Source of the DNA: Candidatus Doudnabacteria bacterium
Lineage (GTDB): Bacteria; Patescibacteriota; Doudnabacteria; UBA920
DNA length: 64,000 nt
Reading direction: 5' to 3'
Assembly: GCA_020850635.1 (NCBI GenBank)
Contig: JADZEH010000024.1
Location: 8,617 to 72,616 of the forward strand
The notes below the pieces were generated by a model, which saw only the letters and a program-made list of their open reading frames with translations, had not been told where the DNA came from and made no database searches. This document shows, in pieces, positions 20,295-58,731 of the stretch (positions are counted from its first letter, which is position 1; every line of letters starts with the position of its first letter). The position numbers were made by a program, and so were the translations under genes.

Positions 20295-20669
20295 ATGCCT
20301 GACGAAGCCCCGGACTTGTCGGTGATCAAGATGCCAACTGACGACGAGAAGAAGTACTTCCTGTACAGTAAGCTCAACACATACATGCGTCGCGGCGAGG
20401 AACAAGGTCTTGCTTACAGGGCTCCTGAGGCCATGAGCAGGGACGAGATCGACACTCACTACAAGACCTACATTCTCACTCACTTGATTGTGAATGATGA
20501 GATCCTCCCAGACCAAATGTCGGCCGCACTTGCAGGCCCTTATGGCTTGGAAACCGATATATTCTACAATGCCTGGATAGTCATCGATGACTATGCCACA
20601 ACAGGAGGTGAAAAGGCTCGCGCCGGCAAATCCTGGAATCTCCCGCCTGAGGAGGACCCCCCGAACTGA
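20295..20669 (+). CDS. Hypothetical acidic protein, compositionally foreign (~52% GC)
   Basis: ATG at 20295 is preceded by aagaggaggag (the ORF track starts earlier at 20256). 124 aa, MPDEAPDLSVIKMPTDDEKKYFLYSKL... Terminator immediately downstream. Antisense to murB/murC. Confidence 0.55.
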   Translation: MPDEAPDLSVIKMPTDDEKKYFLYSKLNTYMRRGEEQGLAYRAPEAMSRDEIDTHYKTYILTHLIVNDEILPDQMSAALAGPYGLETDIFYNAWIVIDDYATTGGEKARAGKSWNLPPEEDPPN

Positions 20670-30292: not shown

Positions 30293-30295
30293 ATA

Positions 30296-30621
30296 CTTTT
30301 AGCAAACTCGTAAGCCGAATTCTGTTTCTAAATAATCATCTATCTTGTCCTGCTGTTACCACCAGGATCATGCTGCCTACCAAATTTGGCATTGCACTCA
30401 GGTAAGGATTTGGCCGTTTCACCCTCTACATTACTGCAAAGGTTCACCCCGAAGGGTGCTCTTGGCTTGCGCCGCCAGCGTCACTGTTCGCACCTCTAAA
30501 ATTACTTTCGACGGGAATTACCCGCTACCCTTGTTAATGACTCTATAGTGGCCATCAACTAAGTGTTCGGACTTTCCTCTCTTAGCCTTGCGGTAAGAGC
30601 GATTATTCGATTTGCTAAAAG
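30296..30621 (-). ncRNA. rnpB: RNase P RNA (bacterial type; M1-like ribozyme)
   Basis: The minus strand carries GAGGAAAGUCCGAACAC (P4 5-prime strand), GGGUGAAACGG, ACAGAAUUCGGCUUAC (P4 3-prime strand). Terminal P1 pairing is CUUUUAGCAAAU / GUUUGCUAAAAG. No ORF. About 326 nt. Confidence 0.8.
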
Positions 30622-30628
30622 CCCCAAA

Positions 30629-30657
30629 ATAATATCATATTTGGGGGCTTTTGTCAA
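30629..30657 (-). promoter_or_regulatory. Sigma70-like promoter TTGACA-17-TATTAT upstream of rnpB
   Basis: Reverse complement of tgtcaa (30652-30657) and ataata (30629-30634), with a 17-bp spacer. Confidence 0.45.
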
Positions 30658-51001: not shown

Positions 51002-54000
51002 ATGACTTTTACCCACCTCCATTGCCATACGCACTACTCCCTCCTCGACGGATTATCTAAAATTGGTCCGTTAGTTGATGAAGCCAAAAAGCTGGGAATG
51101 ACTAGCTTGGCTATGACCGATCATGGAGTGATGTATGGAGCTATTGAGTTTTACAACACCTGTCTTGAAGCTGGCATCAAACCAATTATCGGGATGGAAA
51201 GTTACGTCGCCCCTCGAACTAGATTTGATAAAGAAGGAAAAACCGACGCCGACTATTTTCACATCACCTTACTAGCCAAAAACGATACTGGCTACAAAAA
51301 TTTAATCCAACTTACTACCAAAGCCCATACTGAAGGGTTTTACTATAAACCCCGAGTCGACAAAGAACTACTAACACTTCATGCTGAAGGGTTAATCGCG
51401 CTGTCGGGATGCCAACGTGGGGAAGTTGCTCGAGCTGTAATGGAAAGTGAAACCAAAGGCAAAGAAATACTTGAGCTCTATATTAAGATTTTTGGGACAA
51501 ACAACTTCTTTATAGAAATTCAACGAAACGCTGAAGATCCCAACGACCAAAAACGCGAAACCGAACTCAATCGTCGCCTAATGGCTCTTGCAAAAGAGTA
51601 CAAGCTCTCACTGGTAGCCACAGGTGACTGTCATTATATTCACCCTGAAGACAAAGAAGCTCAAGATGTTTTGGTATGTATTGGCACTGGTCGAACTGTG
51701 CAAGACGAAAATCGCTTAGACATGCGCAGTCATGGTTTATGGCTGAGATCGAGCGTGGAAATGGCCGAACTGTTTAAAGATGTTCCGGAAGCAATAACCA
51801 ACACCCAAAAAGTCGCGGACCTCTGTCAGCTCGATATTCCGATTAATCAAAGATATTTCGCCAACGTTAAACTTCCGTCGAACACTAATGCAGAAGAGTT
51901 TCTCACCGTTGAAGTCGAAACTCAAGTTCATAAAATGTACGCTGACAAAAACGGCGTACTCCCCGATGAAATTCGTGAACGTGTTGATTACGAATTAGGA
52001 ATTATCAAACCCAAAGGTTTTGCCCCATATTTTATTATGGTGGCAGATATTGTAAAAGGGGCACACTCAATTGGTGCGATTACTAACACTCGTGGTTCAG
52101 CTGCGGGTAGTATTGTCGGACATGTTTTAGGGATCAGCGCAATTGACCCAATCTATTATCAGTTGCCTTTTGAACGTTTTTTAACGGCCTCTCGTCCAAC
52201 CCCACCTGATGTTGATTTGGACATTTCCGATACACGTCGTGATGAAACTATTGAATGGATTACGGAACAGTATGGGCGTGATAAAGTCGCGCAGATTATT
52301 ACTTTTGGAACAATGATGGCGCGCGCCGCCGTCCGCGATGTCGGTCGGGCTCTAGCCGTCCCTTATGGTAAATGTGATCGCATCGCCAAGATGATCCCTA
52401 TTGGTAAACAAGGTTTTCAAATGACGCTGAGCAAGGCTTTAGAAATGAACCCTGAGCTCAAGCAGGTCTACAACACCGATGCCGAAACCAAAAAAGTTGT
52501 CGACGTCGCCCGAAAACTAGAAGGTGGCGCACGCCACGCTTCCATTCACGCCGCGGCTCTAGCCATCACCCCAACTCCCCTCACCGACTATACCCCACTT
52601 CAAAAAGAACCTGATGGCGAACGCATGATTACGCAATACGACATGTACTCTCTTGATGTTGGTGCCGACAGTCACGCTATTGGTGTAATCAAAATGGACT
52701 TACTCGGAATACGCAACTTGAGTATTTTGGAAGAAGCCTTGAAGTTAGTGAAAGACAGGCACGGTGTTACGATTGATATTAACAAGCTTCCTCAACCCGA
52801 TCCCAAAACCATGAAACTCTTGTCCGATGGTCACACCTTTGGCGTGTTTCAACTTGGCTCATCGGGTATGACTCGTTATCTCAAAGAGCTAAAGCCACAA
52901 AACATTTTTGATATCATGGCCATGATCGCTCTGTATCGTCCGGGGCCAATGGGAATTATTCCAGAATATATTTCGCGCAGGCATAATCCACGAGCCATTC
53001 AATTTTTTGATCCGCGGATGAAAGATTACCTCGAACGCTCTTTGGGACTATTGGTCTACCAAGAAGATGTTTTACTCACAGCAATTAACATCGCTGGCTA
53101 CTCATGGGAAGAAGCGGACAAACTCCGCAAAGCTATGGGTAAAAAAATCCCTGAAGAAATGACTAAGCAAAAAGTGAAGTTCACCGAAGGCTGTGTTAAC
53201 GGTGGGATGCGCCCCGATCGTGCTGAGGAGTTGTTTAAACTCATCGAACCGTTTGCCGCGTATGGGTTTGGTAAAGCCCATGCCGCCAGTTACGCCCAAG
53301 TCTCCTATCAAACCGCCTATATGAAAGCCAATTATCCCGTGGAGTTCATGGCTGCGGTTATGACCGCCGAAAGCGGTAACGAAGACAAGATCTACGCTGC
53401 AGTAGAAGAATGTAAAGCTCTGGGTATAAAAGTTTTACCGCCAGATGTGAACGAATCACAAGGCGACTTTACCGTGGTTGATGATCATACAATTCGTTTT
53501 GGCATGAACGCCATCAAAAATTTAGGAACAGACGTTGTCGCTAAGATTATCGAATGCAACGAGGGCGGTAAAAAACATTTCGAATCAATAGAAGACTTTT
53601 TAGTGCGCTGTCATGCCAAAAACTTTAACAAGCGTTCATGGGAAGCCTTAGTTAAAGCTGGGGCGTTAGACAAGTTCGACGAACGAGGTAAACTCCTCGC
53701 CAACACCGATTACGTTTTAGATTTTGTGCGTGACCATTTTAAATCTGAGAACTCTGGACAAAATTCCCTGTTTGGCGCATCGCTGAAAATTGGCAAACTT
53801 CGCTTACAAGATGCACCACCGGCTACTCAAGAAGAGATGTTGTTATGGGAAAAGGAACATCTTAATTTTTATATCTCCGCGCACCCACTCGATAACTACA
53901 AATCTGTACTCAAAACTTTCCCCACCATCCGCGAAGTTCAAGCGCTGGAAGGAGAACAACTTGTGACTATCGGTGGAATTATTTCCAAAATGAAACGAAC

Positions 54001-54466
54001 TTTAACCAAGAAGAATGAGCCGATGGCGTTCTTCACTTTAGAAGACTCGACTGGATCACTCGAAGTACTAGTCTTTCCTAAAGTTATGCCAATCGCTTTA
54101 CCGTTCTTAGAACTGGATAAAATTGTTCAAGTTACGGGACGACTGTCAGACAAAGACGGCGAAGCCAAAGTTATCGCCAATGAACTCCAACAAATGCCCA
54201 ACGATGAACTTTATTTCATGGCATTATCTGAAATGGAAAAAAATAAGCAAGTTGTGATTCACATGATCAACGCCAATAACCCTGAAGTCTTAAACAAAAT
54301 CAAAGATGTGATTGTGATGTATCCTGGTAATGCCCAAGTTTATCTTAGTGTAGGAAACGGCAACAACTCCAAGAAGATCAAGACAAAATCACAGGTTCGC
54401 ATTAGCCTCGACCTTATCACTGCGCTCAAAGAAATTCCAGAAATAACCATGGTTAGCCAAAACTAG
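51002..54466 (+). CDS. dnaE: DNA polymerase III alpha subunit (DnaE-type)
   Basis: 1154 aa. PHP domain HLHCHTHYSLLDG at the N-terminus, polymerase core, OB fold. Confidence 0.97.
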   Translation: MTFTHLHCHTHYSLLDGLSKIGPLVDEAKKLGMTSLAMTDHGVMYGAIEFYNTCLEAGIKPIIGMESYVAPRTRFDKEGKTDADYFHITLLAKNDTGYKNLIQLTTKAHTEGFYYKPRVDKELLTLHAEGLIALSGCQRGEVARAVMESETKGKEILELYIKIFGTNNFFIEIQRNAEDPNDQKRETELNRRLMALAKEYKLSLVATGDCHYIHPEDKEAQDVLVCIGTGRTVQDENRLDMRSHGLWLRSSVEMAELFKDVPEAITNTQKVADLCQLDIPINQRYFANVKLPSNTNAEEFLTVEVETQVHKMYADKNGVLPDEIRERVDYELGIIKPKGFAPYFIMVADIVKGAHSIGAITNTRGSAAGSIVGHVLGISAIDPIYYQLPFERFLTASRPTPPDVDLDISDTRRDETIEWITEQYGRDKVAQIITFGTMMARAAVRDVGRALAVPYGKCDRIAKMIPIGKQGFQMTLSKALEMNPELKQVYNTDAETKKVVDVARKLEGGARHASIHAAALAITPTPLTDYTPLQKEPDGERMITQYDMYSLDVGADSHAIGVIKMDLLGIRNLSILEEALKLVKDRHGVTIDINKLPQPDPKTMKLLSDGHTFGVFQLGSSGMTRYLKELKPQNIFDIMAMIALYRPGPMGIIPEYISRRHNPRAIQFFDPRMKDYLERSLGLLVYQEDVLLTAINIAGYSWEEADKLRKAMGKKIPEEMTKQKVKFTEGCVNGGMRPDRAEELFKLIEPFAAYGFGKAHAASYAQVSYQTAYMKANYPVEFMAAVMTAESGNEDKIYAAVEECKALGIKVLPPDVNESQGDFTVVDDHTIRFGMNAIKNLGTDVVAKIIECNEGGKKHFESIEDFLVRCHAKNFNKRSWEALVKAGALDKFDERGKLLANTDYVLDFVRDHFKSENSGQNSLFGASLKIGKLRLQDAPPATQEEMLLWEKEHLNFYISAHPLDNYKSVLKTFPTIREVQALEGEQLVTIGGIISKMKRTLTKKNEPMAFFTLEDSTGSLEVLVFPKVMPIALPFLELDKIVQVTGRLSDKDGEAKVIANELQQMPNDELYFMALSEMEKNKQVVIHMINANNPEVLNKIKDVIVMYPGNAQVYLSVGNGNNSKKIKTKSQVRISLDLITALKEIPEITMVSQN

Positions 54467-54487
54467 AGCTTGTGGTATACTGAAGGC

Positions 54488-54742
54488 AATTTGCACTAAA
54501 GAGAATTGGCTTTCCCCTGGTCCAGCTAGTTACCCTCGCCTTTAGGAACATGTTTGAGACAATCGGCCCCACATACTGGAGAGTAGTTACTCCAGACATT
54601 CCCCACCTAAGAGCCAATTCTCACAATCGGTCAGTAGTGAATACCAGTCCAACAAGGAGGACTATCAAGCGCCTAGGCGCTTACCCCAAGTAGCACACCC
54701 AGTCACAGCGTTCCCGCGCAATGGTGTTGCTTGGGTTTTTTT
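54488..54742 (+). ncRNA. Candidate structured small RNA (~255 nt) with extended -10 promoter and intrinsic terminator; family unknown
   Basis: TGgTATACT extended -10 at 54473-54481. No ORF of 60 aa or more on this strand. Long-range stem GAGAAUUGGCU (54502-54512) pairs with AGCCAAUUCUC (54610-54620). Internal hairpins (cuggag/cuccag; GCGCCUAGGCGC). Terminal stem cccaag/cttggg followed by T7. Confidence 0.35.
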
Positions 54743-54744
54743 AT

Positions 54745-54773
54745 TTGACAAAAAGGGGTAATAGTCCTAGAAT
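54745..54773 (+). promoter_or_regulatory. Consensus-like sigma70 promoter TTGACA-17-TAGAAT
   Basis: -35 at 54745-54750, -10 at 54768-54773. GGAGAAAG Shine-Dalgarno before the ATG at 54855. Confidence 0.45.
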
Positions 54774-54854
54774 GAGCAAAGTTTCAACTAGAAGCACGGC
54801 TCATACAGCGTGTTTATCACCCAACGCCCAGCCGAAGCGAATTGGAGAAAGCTC

Positions 54855-55346
54855 ATGAAGAGTCTCCTTTCGATGCTGTCCGTTGCAATCGTCTTCGCTT
54901 TCGTGTCACCTCTGGTGGCCGACCTCGAGGCGAAAGCGAGTTCGACCAACAAATCGCCGCCGAGCATTACCATCACGGGTCAGCGCATCCATTACGGATC
55001 TGACGATGTGAACACGATGCCGATGGCCGACCAAACGCCGCTCGAGACGATCACCACGTCCGCCAGCATGGACAAGGTTTTCGCTCCACCGGCGATCAAC
55101 AGTTCGAAGATGACCGGGTCCACCGACGGGAAATCGGTGAACGATCCGGCCGCCACGCTCGCGGGAACCGACCCGTACATTGTTCTGTACATCAACGTCG
55201 CCATTCAACGGACGATGATACCGGCAATGGCAGGATGCAACGAGGCGATTTTGCGCGCACCCCGCAAGTCGGCACGTTCGGGTCCCGAGATCCAACGAGC
55301 CTGGCGCCCGTTCGCCGGCCTCGATCTCAACTCCTCGAAGCCCTGA
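54855..55346 (+). CDS. Small secreted hypothetical protein, high GC (~58%)
   Basis: ATG at 54855 (the ORF track opens at 54810). Signal peptide MKSLLSMLSVAIVFAFVSPLVADLEAKA. 163 aa. The antisense ORFs here are high-GC artefacts. Confidence 0.5.
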   Translation: MKSLLSMLSVAIVFAFVSPLVADLEAKASSTNKSPPSITITGQRIHYGSDDVNTMPMADQTPLETITTSASMDKVFAPPAINSSKMTGSTDGKSVNDPAATLAGTDPYIVLYINVAIQRTMIPAMAGCNEAILRAPRKSARSGPEIQRAWRPFAGLDLNSSKP

Positions 55347-55393
55347 AACTTGTTCGCAAAAGCGAACACTCACGACCTCCTCACGGAGGGACC

Positions 55394-55433
55394 CCGCTCT
55401 CGACATCTACGGATGTCGGAGCGGTCTTTTTTT
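55394..55433 (+). terminator. Intrinsic terminator (ccgctc-t-cgacatc / gatgtcggagcgg, T7)
   Basis: About 13-bp stem with one bulge and a tetraloop, followed by seven Ts. Confidence 0.65.
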
Positions 55434-55442
55434 ATTTAAAGA

Positions 55443-55471
55443 TTGACATTTAGCATTATTTTCTGTAGATT
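55443..55471 (+). promoter_or_regulatory. Sigma70-like promoter TTGACA-17-TAGATT
   Basis: -35 at 55443-55448 (the ORF-track TTG start is this box), -10 at 55466-55471. AAGGAGGA Shine-Dalgarno at 55482-55489. Confidence 0.45.
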
Positions 55472-55496
55472 GATATATCGCAAGGAGGAACGCGAC

Positions 55497-56012
55497 ATGA
55501 ACTCACTCCGCCATGTTTTGCTTTATGCAATTGTCATCCTGTTCATCTCGGTTATTGCCGCTATCCTGTACTGGCTATTCGGCATTCAACCGATCAACAC
55601 AGTCTACGGAACTATTGTAGTTTTCGTAGTTTGTTTTCTCTGGCTCTCTTGGGAAAATTTTGTGATTTCACCAAGAAGAATTCAAATAATCCTGCAAATC
55701 TTAGCCATGGATGGCGGAGAAATGACAACCTTAGAAATCATCGAGCAGGGCAAGGGCGAACTAAGCAGGGCTGCTATCCACTCCGAGTTAAATTACCTGA
55801 TTGAGAAAGATCTTGTGAGTAAACGTATCGAGGAACGAACCACACCATATATTCCGCTCAGCTACTTCAAGATCACACCCAACGGAAGACGAGAACAACA
55901 CGCCAAGATTACTTCGAAGTTGAGACTTAGCTGGCAACGTACGTGGAGCCAGTCCGGACAGACAATGTCCGGTCTTTTTTTATCCTCAAGATTTTTGACA
56001 CAAACAGTTTGA
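55497..56012 (+). CDS. Membrane-anchored winged-helix (PadR/MarR-like) protein
   Basis: ATG at 55497. Two N-terminal TM helices, then ILQILAMDGGEMTTLEIIE...SELNYLIEKDLVSKRIEE...YFKITPNGRRE resembling PadR-type wHTH. An intrinsic terminator lies inside the last ~20 codons. Confidence 0.5.
   Translation: MNSLRHVLLYAIVILFISVIAAILYWLFGIQPINTVYGTIVVFVVCFLWLSWENFVISPRRIQIILQILAMDGGEMTTLEIIEQGKGELSRAAIHSELNYLIEKDLVSKRIEERTTPYIPLSYFKITPNGRREQHAKITSKLRLSWQRTWSQSGQTMSGLFLSSRFLTQTV
55954..55981 (+). terminator. Intrinsic terminator (ccggaca/tgtccgg, T7) embedded in the 3-prime end of the wHTH ORF
   Basis: 7-bp stem, 5-nt loop, TTTTTTT. Confidence 0.6.
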
Positions 56013-56023
56013 GCATCTATAAT
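55995..56023 (+). promoter_or_regulatory. Perfect consensus sigma70 promoter TTGACA-17-TATAAT
   Basis: -35 at 55995-56000, -10 at 56018-56023. Overlaps the stop codon (56010-56012) of the upstream ORF. Confidence 0.5.
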
Positions 56024-56029
56024 GGTCGC

Positions 56030-56378
56030 GGTTGTGAACTCGGAAGACAAGCACGTCCGGGCACTTACAATCATGCATTAAAGGAACCGATGCAAGGGAA
56101 TCAGAACTGGCTGAATACGCTTTCACCGCTTCAGCAATTTCTGGTCCGAGTTGCCCCTTACGTTGGGAAGTTCCACACTTTAAAAATCCCAAGATGCACC
56201 CACCCAAATCGGTAGAGCCGTGATGGGCAATGACCACCGGTTTTCCCTAGGAAGATAAGGTAGCTCTAAATCAGCGCCAATCGTGACCATGAAACTTTTG
56301 ACCTAGGCACAACAACAAGGAGAATACGAGACAGAAAACCCACCGTTCAGATTCAGAGCTTCTGAACGGTCTTTTTTA
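56030..56378 (+). ncRNA. About 350-nt transcription unit: either a non-coding RNA or mRNA for a 41-aa peptide (MQGNQNWLNTLSPLQQFLVRVAPYVGKFHTLKIPRCTHPNR, 56090-56215) with a 125-nt 3-prime UTR
   Basis: Defined by the perfect promoter upstream and the 10-bp-stem terminator at 56342-56377. Only a weak SD (AAAGGA) before the ATG at 56090. Confidence 0.3.
56342..56377 (+). terminator. Intrinsic terminator (accgttcaga/tctgaacggt, T6)
   Basis: Perfect 10-bp stem, 9-nt loop, TTTTTT. Confidence 0.7.
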
Positions 56379-56385
56379 TCCCCGG

Positions 56386-56414
56386 TTGATTTTCAAAAGC
56401 TTATTTACTATACT
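56386..56414 (+). promoter_or_regulatory. Sigma70-like promoter TTGATT-17-TATACT
   Basis: -35 at 56386-56391, -10 at 56409-56414. Confidence 0.4.
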
Positions 56415-56420
56415 ATTAAT

Positions 56421-56578
56421 AGATTCTGCAAGCGCTGATCCGACTACCACTCGGGAAGTTTGCCCAAATTAAATACAAAAGGTCGCACCATAAGATGCGA
56501 CGAACTGGGACGGAAACGTCTATAAAAAGACCCCAGCATATTGTTCTGAACAAGTTCAGAGCAGCATGCTGGGTTTTT
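56421..56578 (+). ncRNA. Candidate small RNA (~158 nt) between promoter and bidirectional terminator
   Basis: No ORF. Internal hairpin gucgca/ugcgac. Ends in a compound hairpin cccagcat...atgctggg followed by T5. Confidence 0.3.
56532..56578. terminator. Bidirectional compound hairpin terminator (cccagcat...ctgaac/gttcag...atgctggg)
   Basis: 8-bp outer stem plus 6-bp inner stem. T-run on plus and on minus (ctttttat). Confidence 0.55.
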
Positions 56579-56584
56579 GAGAGA

Positions 56585-56854
56585 TCATTTGCACAAAAAG
56601 TAAATGAAGAGGATGGCAACTGAGGCTATGAGAATCAACAGGTTTTCTTTTTGGAAGAGCCACCGGAATGCCCCAAGGCTCATAACGCCAAAGCCAGTAA
56701 GCAAATAAACGCCACCTTCGTGTAACTCGCGATTGAAATCGCAAATCACTCTTCCTTCTGGAAGTAGTCCATACCCATGTATGGCAATACAACATCCGAT
56801 AAGAAAAAGTGAGACGAACACAACTTTCTTTGCACAGATCCACACAAACTTCAT
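56585..56854 (-). CDS. Small hypothetical membrane protein (2 TM), divergent from thrS
   Basis: 89 aa, MKFVWICAKKVVFVSLFLIGCCIAIHGYGLL... GGGGGA SD 6 nt upstream. The larger overlapping ORF (56556-56888) is in another frame. Confidence 0.4.
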   Translation of the reverse strand: MKFVWICAKKVVFVSLFLIGCCIAIHGYGLLPEGRVICDFNRELHEGGVYLLTGFGVMSLGAFRWLFQKENLLILIASVAILFIYFLCK

Positions 56855-56916
56855 GACAAATCCCCCTTTGTCGAAAGTCTATAAGCATATCATTACGAAA
56901 TTAAATTAGCAAAATT

Positions 56917-58731
56917 ATGAACCAAGACGAACAACTTTCAAATATTCGCCACTCATTGGCTCACTTACTTGCATCAAGCGTGCTTGAAGTTTTCCCTGAC
57001 GCCAAACTTGGTGTTGGTCCAGTAATAGACAATGGCTTTTATTACGATTTTCAATTACCACGTCCTTTAACTCCCGATGACCTCAAAGACATTGAGAAAA
57101 AGATGAAAAAGCTCGTGGGTAAAAAATTAGCGTTTGAACGCCAAGAACTTTCTACCACTGAGGCCACAAAGTTTTTTAAAGACGCTGATCAACCTTTCAA
57201 GCTCGATCTAATTAGCGCCTTAGAAAAATTTGGAACGACTAGTGCTGATGAAATTCTTAACGCTGAGCAAGCAACTTCAAGTGAGCAAAGTGGTGGAGTT
57301 GATACAGTCTCACTTTACAAAACGGGTGAATTTACAGACCTTTGCCGTGGCGGTCACGTGGAGAACACATCGGAAATTGATGCAGATAGTTTTAAGCTTG
57401 ATAAGATTGCTGGAGCCTACTGGCGTGGTGATGAAAAAAATCCTCAACTCACTCGTATTTACGGACTAGCTTTTGAAAACAAAGAAGCGCTTGATGAATA
57501 CTTGCACATGCGCGAAGAAGCTGAAAAGCGCGACCACAAAAAACTTGGACGTGAATTAAAACTCTTTACCATTTCTGACTTAGTCGGTGCTGGCCTGCCT
57601 TTGATTCAACCAAAAGGTATGGTTATCCGCAAAACGATTGAAGATTATTTATGGTCACTCCACGCTGATAAAGGTTACTCACGAGTCTGGACACCTCATA
57701 TTGCGAAAGAGGCTTTATACGAAACTTCTGGTCACGCCGCTAAATTCGGTGATGAACTTTTCCGTGTACAAGGAAAAGAGGACAAATTCATCATGAAGCC
57801 CATGAACTGCCCACATCACATGCAACTCTACGCGGATAATCAATTCTCGTATCGTGATATGCCTGTTCGTTACTTTGAACCCGCTACAGTCTATCGTGAT
57901 GAAAAATCAGGACAACTTGGTGGATTGACTCGCGTTCGAAGCATTACGCAAGACGATGGTCATTTATTCTGTCGCGTCTCACAAATCGAACAAGAAGTTA
58001 GTATGATCGTTTCTGTCATCACCGAATTTTATAGCTCCGTAGGAATGTTAGATAGCTATTGGGTAAGTCTTTCGGTTCGTGGTGAAGATAAATCTAAATA
58101 CTTGGGTGAGGATAGTGTCTGGGAAATGGCTGAAAGTAGCCTCGAACAAGCTGCCAAAGCGAATAATTTGCCTTACAAACGAATGGTCGGTGAAGCCGCG
58201 TTCTATGGACCAAAGCTCGACTTTATGTTTAAAGATTCGATTGGCCGTGAGTGGCAATTAGCTACCATTCAATGTGACTTTAACCTACCCGCACGGTTTG
58301 AATTAGCTTACAAAAATGAAAAAGGCGAAGATGAACAACCAGTTGTTATTCACCGTGCTATTTCAGGCTCACTCGAGCGCTTTATGGGAATTCTAATCGA
58401 ACATTATGCTGGAGCGTTCCCAGTGTGGTTAGCACCTGTCCAAGCTTCTGTCTTACCAATCTCAGACAAACATTTAGATTACGCTCAAGACGTAAAACAA
58501 CAACTTCACGAAGCTGGTATCCGAGTTGAACTCGATGACCGTAGTGAATCAATCGGGAAGAAAATTCGTGAAGCCACCAAGCAAAAAGTTCCTTACATGC
58601 TCGTTGTTGGTGACAAAGAAGTCGAAGCTGGTAAAGTCGCCATTCGAAATTTGGCCGGTGATGATCTTGGCACAATGACAATCCCAGACTTGATCAACAA
58701 ACTCCAACAAGAAATTACAACTAAAGCCTAA
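56917..58731 (+). CDS. thrS: Threonine--tRNA ligase
   Basis: 604 aa. Class II aaRS motifs and a ThrRS catalytic core (HRAISGSLERFMGILIEHYAG), C-terminal anticodon-binding domain. Confidence 0.97.
   Translation: MNQDEQLSNIRHSLAHLLASSVLEVFPDAKLGVGPVIDNGFYYDFQLPRPLTPDDLKDIEKKMKKLVGKKLAFERQELSTTEATKFFKDADQPFKLDLISALEKFGTTSADEILNAEQATSSEQSGGVDTVSLYKTGEFTDLCRGGHVENTSEIDADSFKLDKIAGAYWRGDEKNPQLTRIYGLAFENKEALDEYLHMREEAEKRDHKKLGRELKLFTISDLVGAGLPLIQPKGMVIRKTIEDYLWSLHADKGYSRVWTPHIAKEALYETSGHAAKFGDELFRVQGKEDKFIMKPMNCPHHMQLYADNQFSYRDMPVRYFEPATVYRDEKSGQLGGLTRVRSITQDDGHLFCRVSQIEQEVSMIVSVITEFYSSVGMLDSYWVSLSVRGEDKSKYLGEDSVWEMAESSLEQAAKANNLPYKRMVGEAAFYGPKLDFMFKDSIGREWQLATIQCDFNLPARFELAYKNEKGEDEQPVVIHRAISGSLERFMGILIEHYAGAFPVWLAPVQASVLPISDKHLDYAQDVKQQLHEAGIRVELDDRSESIGKKIREATKQKVPYMLVVGDKEVEAGKVAIRNLAGDDLGTMTIPDLINKLQQEITTKA

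Follow-up and report, generated by a model that had tools for sequence, protein, structure and literature searches.

A PadR-like gene with a predicted membrane anchor and a reading frame that passes through its terminator, in a variable locus of Doudnabacteria

Background

Proteins of PadR subfamily 2, which include LmrR of Lactococcus lactis (PF03551), have a winged helix-turn-helix (wHTH) of about 100 residues followed by a single C-terminal helix. This helix makes the dimer in PadR-s2 proteins. LmrR and the other PadR structures matched in this analysis are soluble chains that lack N-terminal helices. A link between a PadR-like wHTH and the membrane has been described in the envelope-stress HAAS-PadR-like wHTH dyads, in which the PadR-like domain is functionally coupled to a membrane-associated sensing module. 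The membrane-linked HAAS protein of these dyads is a separate polypeptide, encoded beside a standalone PadR (PMC11237479).

Other known systems concern the 3' ends of genes. In E. coli, arfA and lacI are expressed from non-stop mRNAs, and this has a regulatory role; for arfA, a circuit that includes truncation of the message by RNase III has been demonstrated (PMC3985003). In compact bacterial genomes, terminators may overlap stop codons, with the hairpin starting within the last codons. Here we analyze an ORF that recalls both the PadR proteins and these 3' ends. It lies between dnaE and thrS in a 64-kb stretch of DNA from Candidatus Doudnabacteria; the whole of this stretch is called the window.

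Results

The ORF is predicted to be a real accessory gene that is transcribed as a single-gene unit, since a promoter, a Shine-Dalgarno sequence, and an intrinsic terminator all belong to it (Table 1). A preliminary description, made from the sequence, had the feature span 55497-56023. The start is correct and the end is not: the -10 hexamer of the next promoter ends at position 56023, and the ORF at 56012. The -35 hexamer, the -10 hexamer, and the 5' UTR are all kept in the related lineage L007 and kept in part in L011, and the Shine-Dalgarno sequence AAGGAGGA is kept in both. The same 171-residue protein was called, identical, on six independent metagenome contigs, and wastewater is among the sources of the sequencing runs in which the organism occurs. 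Strains L001-L006 are identical over 55400-57700, and their comparison is uninformative on purifying selection on the ORF. A spurious ORF is ruled out by the conserved Shine-Dalgarno sequence and promoter, the existence of homologues at 30-51% identity, and the PadR fold.

The region around the transcription start contains a candidate operator. The palindrome GATATATC occurs once in the window and is found in the same place in L007 and L011. One copy is expected by chance in 43% of shuffles, and its candidacy therefore rests on position and conservation, not on count. The whole window has two perfect 12/12 TTGACA-17-TATAAT sites. Near-consensus promoters are also found 5' of an RNase P RNA and a tRNA cluster, so this type of promoter is evidently used by the organism. 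The RNase P RNA is of class A (30295-30618, minus strand), with a score of 108.6 bits that is barely above the Rfam threshold of 100, and its promoter lies at 30629-30657.

Table 1. Features of the dnaE-thrS gap and loci of the thrS leader unit in other lineages.
Feature	Position	Strand	Remarks
Unit A	54454-54744	+	Directly follows the dnaE stop
Unit B	54745-55430	+	56-61% G+C, compared with about 42% around it
Unit C			The PadR-like gene
Promoter of the PadR-like gene, TTGACA-17-TAGATT	55443..55471	+	10/12 in a consensus scan
Perfect 8-bp palindrome GATATATC, candidate operator	55472..55479	.	Directly 3' of the -10 hexamer
Shine-Dalgarno sequence AAGGAGGA	55482..55489	+	8 nt 5' of the ATG; read from the sequence
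ORF, predicted membrane-anchored PadR-like protein	55497..56012	+	171 residues plus TGA; ATG at 55497, TGA at 56010-56012
Two hydrophobic helices, predicted membrane hairpin	55497..55667	+	Residues 1-57; Kyte-Doolittle, AF2
Predicted PadR-s2-type winged helix (a1-a3, beta wing) and C-terminal helix 128-152	55668..55952	+	Residues 58-152
Non-conserved tail	55953..56009	+	Residues 153-171; encoded by the hairpin, the T-tract, and the -35 and spacer of the next promoter
Intrinsic-terminator-like hairpin and T7	55954..55981	+	Stem 55954-55972, T7 55975-55981
Perfect sigma-70-type promoter of unit D	55995..56023	+	TTGACA 55995-56000, 17 nt, TATAAT 56018-56023; 12/12
Unit D	55995-56378	+	
Unit D body, about 345 nt, conserved and probably non-coding	56030..56378	+	Terminator 56342-56377
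Unit E	56386-56580	+	Promoter and four helices; contains the thrS leader
thrS leader	56421-56580	+	Within unit E
Unit M, hydrophobic membrane ORF	56585-56854	-	89 residues; strong Shine-Dalgarno sequence; divergent from thrS
Unit E in L007	600-806		
Unit E in L011	905-1110		
Unit E in L016	4512-4730		
Unit E in L017	150-345		
Unit E in L019	2990-3168		
Unit E in L021	385-592		

Hydropathy and structure prediction support a protein in which a two-helix membrane hairpin is fused directly to a winged helix of the PadR-s2/LmrR type. Both parts of this architecture had been proposed in the preliminary description, and both are supported. Kyte-Doolittle peaks are found at residues 7-25 (score 2.9) and 33-57 (about 2.0). 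The AF2 model, built on a shallow family alignment of 10 sequences (pLDDT 76.8, pTM 0.53), has helices at residues 2-28 and 32-72. Its winged helix-turn-helix is made up of a helix at 57-72, a2 at 78-84, a3 at 91-103, and a wing with strands at 107-112 and 121-126. It is followed by one C-terminal helix at 128-152, so that the winged helix-turn-helix plus single helix of PadR subfamily 2 is present in the model. Residues 152-171 have a pLDDT below 50 and are predicted to be disordered.

Comparisons of structure and of profiles agree on the PadR family, and subfamily 2 gives both the best structural and the best sequence-profile matches. With Foldseek, the best PDB matches to the AF2 model are LmrR and other PadR-s2 structures, with a TM score of about 0.7 on the target. 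There are 30 PDB matches with E <= 0.001, and the top ones are LmrR or other PadR-family proteins, plus the PadR-related Pex. These best matches have E values of about 1e-4 at a sequence identity of about 17%. When the family profile was compared to the PDB, almost all matches were PadR or LmrR chains, the top one being the PadR protein 5dym (E 5e-5). The single sequence has sub-threshold matches in Pfam and NCBIfam to Penicillinase_R (0.005), MarR_2, PadR (0.068), and Lrs14; its score against Pfam PadR (PF03551) is 13.6 bits (E 0.068), below the gathering cut-off of 27. Six of the ten family members match Pfam PadR at E<=0.01, the best at 5.3e-10, and the L007 protein, P0002, carries a precomputed PadR match. 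A search of PHROGs gave marginal regulator matches alone.

The N and C termini are most likely both cytoplasmic. The hydrophobic helices are flanked by one and two basic residues, and the positive-inside signal is weak. The DNA-binding domain is predicted to be in the cytoplasm because the number of helices is even and the domain must reach DNA. An anti-sigma-like role, which had been suggested as a possibility, finds no support: the gene lacks an adjacent sigma factor gene, and no anti-sigma domain was matched in Pfam or NCBIfam. The neighbors of the gene are non-coding units, an ORF for a secreted protein, dnaE, and thrS.

The family appears to be tiny and patchy, and its architecture to be rare and specific to CPR. 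Searched alone against a word index of proteins, the sequence retrieved nothing but itself, and an exhaustive search was needed. Exhaustive phmmer over 1.84 billion representatives gave seven relatives, and a profile search over 5.8 billion sequences gave two more, bringing the family to 10 sequences in two billion-scale searches that were exhaustive or nearly so. Seven of the ten have both N-terminal hydrophobic helices, and the other three are bare winged helices. The positions of the wHTH are kept among members at 30-50% identity.

The reading frame passes through a hairpin and T-tract that are predicted, by consensus, to act as an intrinsic terminator. The stem CCGGACA/TGTCCGG has 7 bp, five of them G-C pairs, with a loop of 5 nt, and is followed by the T7 tract; a G+C-rich hairpin thus leads directly to a U-tract, as in intrinsic terminators. 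The segment 55940-55985 folds at -15.7 kcal/mol (z = -2.86), and only 1 of 200 shuffles is as good. The 171-codon ORF crosses both elements, and its TGA sits in the spacer of the perfect unit D promoter, 29 nt past the T-tract, as the preliminary description had reported. In L011 the promoter of unit D is TTGACA-17-TACAAT. Related lineages conserve the hairpin, the T-tract, and the promoter that follows, so these are not chance matches. Because the stop lies past the T-tract, a transcript that ended at the terminator would carry no stop codon. A survey of hairpins with T-tracts near ORF ends in the window found about 14 ORFs that stop before the hairpin and two that stop inside their own (at 20669 and 47147). 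Among about 17 terminator-associated ORF ends in the 64 kb, the PadR-like ORF is the only credible gene that stops beyond the T-tract.

Comparison of orthologues suggests that the conserved 3' element is the hairpin and supports the view that the last 20 or so residues are incidental. Four orthologous loci of the dnaE-thrS gap were aligned (the window, L007, L011, and L017). All four share the stem CCGGAC/GTCCGG and the T-tract without change, while the coding sequence just 5' of them has diverged, and no two loci have their stop codon at the same place. In the window (protein P0001) it is the TGA in the unit D promoter spacer, and in L007 (P0002, 51% identity) it is a TAA immediately after the TATAAT of the unit E promoter. 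In L011 (P0003, 43% identity) the wing is followed directly by a TAG, which lies 60 nt short of the hairpin and removes the C-terminal helix. In L017, where the protein is not numbered, a TAG precedes an identical hairpin by 8 nt. Two distant members are found in other genomic contexts: P0004 (L010) has its stop in the loop of a terminator hairpin, and the frame of P0005 (L008) passes a hairpin into a convergent gene.

The hairpin is conserved outside the ORF in L011 and L017, and therefore the constraint is on an RNA or DNA element and not on the protein. The tails beyond the T-tract are unrelated (LSSRFLTQTV in P0001 and PVDFQELIYYN in P0002). Since the stop position varies among orthologues, the tails are unrelated, and residues 152-171 are predicted to be disordered, the tail appears to be incidental, which was one of the two readings first offered for it. 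It had also been stated that homologues ending well before the hairpin would mean a shorter protein. L011 and L017 do end before it, but L007 runs on like the window. An mRNA with no in-frame stop before its 3' end is thus predicted in the window and L007 only, and not in L011 or L017.

The gap between dnaE and thrS is a presence/absence hot spot for cassettes that extend from promoter to terminator. It is 2.45 kb long (dnaE ends at 54466 and thrS starts at 56917) and stacks self-contained units, each with a promoter-like site and each ending at a hairpin and T-tract. The window has units A, B, C, D, E, and M. L011 has C, D, E, and M; L007 has B, C, and E; L017 has C, E, and M; L016 and L018 have A, B, E, and M'; L019 has B and E; and L021 has E only. 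The PadR-like gene is a dispensable cassette, since L016/L018, L019, and L021 have the same gap without unit C. Units meet where the T-tract of one terminator gives way to the next -35. A direct repeat, CGGTCTTTTTT(T)ATCC, lies on either side of unit D at 55970-55985 and 56367-56381.

The remaining units of the gap are diverse. Unit A combines a promoter-like site of the extended -10 type (TGgTATACT) with a weak terminator; it has about 255 nt free of ORFs and a fold z-score of -2.6. Strain L001 is 98% identical to the window and shows 190 differences from it in 9 kb, of which 114, indels among them, are concentrated in 54500-55000. Within dnaE, about 44 substitutions relative to L001 lie in the 500 bp at 51100-51600, in a gene that is otherwise nearly identical, and this second cluster may be a recombination tract. 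Unit B has its own consensus promoter, a double-hairpin terminator, and an ORF of about 160 residues with a signal peptide (54855-55346). Three lineages have a unit B at this position, namely the window, L016 (3810-4520), and L019 (2225-2985). Their unit B proteins are not recognizably homologous (17-24% identity) and match no Pfam family. In L001, gene callers chose the opposite strand of unit B. Unit M sits between the thrS leader terminator and the start of thrS and is present in L011 and L017. In L016/L018 it is replaced by an ORF of 128 residues (M'), and it is absent from L007, L019, and L021. Transcription that reads through the thrS leader would run antisense to unit M.

Unit D is unclassified and is probably a non-coding RNA. 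It has a strong promoter and a strong terminator that are conserved in L011 (535-912), with 71% blastn identity over 635 bp and 80% mean column identity in a two-sequence MAFFT alignment. Conserved blocks include ACGCTTTCACCGCTTCAGC. There is no ORF common to the window and L011, and unit D has no Rfam match in either. Identification as tmRNA, SRP RNA, 6S RNA, or another known RNA was also considered and rejected, because neither ARAGORN nor Rfam gave a match in the window or in L011. The fold z-score of -1.07 is unremarkable, and the consensus fold of the two sequences has 10 compensatory pairs, too little for a judgment. Unit D is not present in L007, L017, or L016. From L007 it had been assumed to be an insertion into the window lineage, but the more distant L011 also has it. 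The two terminator ends are similar, and loss in L007 and L017 through recombination between them is no less likely than insertion.

Unit E, which lies directly 5' of the thrS ATG in L007, L019, and L021, looks like an undescribed attenuator. Its mean column identity is 88% in a three-lineage alignment and 75% across seven lineages, and it is far better conserved than the neighboring units. In the seven-lineage alignment, helices P1-P2-P3-P4 reach 95% pairing, and 10 of their 18 pairs show compensatory changes. None of 500 shuffles reaches these values of pairing and covariation, and slid controls have 24-40% pairing. The P4 antiterminator (CUGGG/CCCAG) and a terminator stem with equal support cannot form at the same time. 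The P1 loop of 7 nt, C[U/C]ACCA[C/A], always displays the Thr codon ACC and is complementary to the anticodon loop of the tRNA-Thr(GGU) encoded in the window. No T-box or other Rfam family was matched in any lineage, and no report of T-box riboswitches in CPR was found in a search of one collection of papers. Pattern scans gave one locus in genome contigs and one in metagenome contigs, so the clade is sparsely sampled. Unit E is thus a candidate for a tRNA-Thr-sensing, or at least amino-acid-specific, attenuator in Doudnabacteria-like CPR.

Discussion

The most probable explanation is that the ORF is a real accessory gene for a membrane-tethered PadR protein, and that its tail is read-through noise past a conserved terminator; we are fairly confident of this joint reading. 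The most likely role of the protein would be that of a transcriptional repressor located at the membrane. Autoregulation is probable and would take place through the palindrome at the gene's own transcription start. DNA binding and termination efficiency are predictions as well. In the window and in L007, the stop codon expected before or within the hairpin is missing, and the frame would simply idle across hairpin, T-tract, and downstream promoter alike and end at whichever stop happens to come first. The last 20 or so residues would then be evolutionary noise, and on transcripts ending at the T-tract, which have no stop codon, ribosomes would have to be rescued. A closely trailing ribosome could instead suppress the hairpin, giving read-through into unit D.

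The missing stop might have a function of its own. Two lineages whose proteins are about 50% identical both lack a stop before the terminator, and this state could be tolerated for a reason rather than being neutral. There is little chance, in our estimation, that the missing stop is functional in the sense that read-through of the terminator, or the capacity for ribosome rescue, controls how much protein is made and that expression is coupled to unit D. One form of this idea is that the terminator inside the ORF sets the output, as in a non-stop circuit of the ArfA or LacI kind: the non-stop mRNAs would undergo trans-translation, the tagged protein would be degraded, and stable protein would come from read-through alone. 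The absence of an in-frame stop before a good hairpin and T7 in both the window and L007 (51% protein identity) is in keeping with it, as are the unique position of this gene among the terminator-associated ORF ends of the window and the regulatory precedents of LacI and ArfA (PMC3985003). However, the no-stop state is not conserved, since two of the four orthologous loci (L011 and L017) stop before the hairpin and P0004 stops in the loop, and we consider this explanation unlikely. ARAGORN found no tmRNA in the 64-kb window.

Another form holds that the hairpin is a conditional terminator sensitive to translation. A trailing ribosome would block the hairpin and allow the gene and unit D to be co-transcribed, and an untranslated message would be stopped. 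The ORF spans the entire hairpin and T-tract, both read-through ORFs end inside or right after the next promoter, and in the sampled loci unit D is found only together with the PadR-like gene (window and L011). But L011 has unit D and stops 60 nt before the hairpin, so it would have no ribosome cover, and in L007 and L017 the gene is present while unit D is absent. These distributions make a conditional terminator very doubtful. The interleaving of transcription and translation that had been offered as the second reading of the layout is not needed to account for it; it keeps a small probability, since two lineages do have no stop before the terminator. It is highly improbable that the protein is not a transcription factor at all and is instead a DNA-membrane tether or a decaying accessory gene without current function. 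The cassette is missing from close relatives, the premature TAG of L011 deletes the C-terminal helix, the family is tiny and patchy, and no adjacent target gene is evident, all of which would fit decay or tethering. On the other hand, an identical protein of 171 residues comes from six independent metagenomes, the wHTH positions are kept across members at 30-50% identity, and the promoter and Shine-Dalgarno sequence are intact and conserved.

What is new in the PadR-like gene is an architectural variant of a well-known regulator family, and it is of modest interest. As it stands it matters little: the known membrane-tethered regulators gain one in which a two-helix anchor is joined to a PadR winged helix. 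The gene also illustrates cleanly that, in compact genomes, ORF callers can carry a gene on through its terminator. If the no-stop layout were to regulate expression, the finding would matter more. The surroundings give the locus more value, with a variable stack of cassettes and a thrS leader that seems not to have been described before. The idea that unit E is a new tRNA-sensing attenuator of Patescibacteria can be put to a direct test.

Comparison with known systems

The predicted protein shares with PadR subfamily 2 the winged helix-turn-helix followed by a single C-terminal helix. Unlike LmrR and the other matched structures, it has a two-helix membrane hairpin fused to a1. The HAAS-PadR dyads also link a PadR-like wHTH to a membrane part. 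In contrast to those dyads, the membrane segment here is fused to the wHTH, the gene is monocistronic, and it has no HAAS, PspC, or Toastrack neighbor.

At its 3' end the gene resembles arfA and lacI in that a structure within the coding region, or ending it, may end the mRNA before any stop codon. Unlike the demonstrated arfA circuit, the no-stop state here is a prediction that holds for two of four orthologues. The hairpin starts within the last codons, as do the terminators that overlap stop codons in compact bacterial genomes. Two other genes of the window and P0004 end inside their hairpins, whereas here the frame clears both the hairpin and the T-tract and ends 29 nt past the latter, in the promoter of the next unit.
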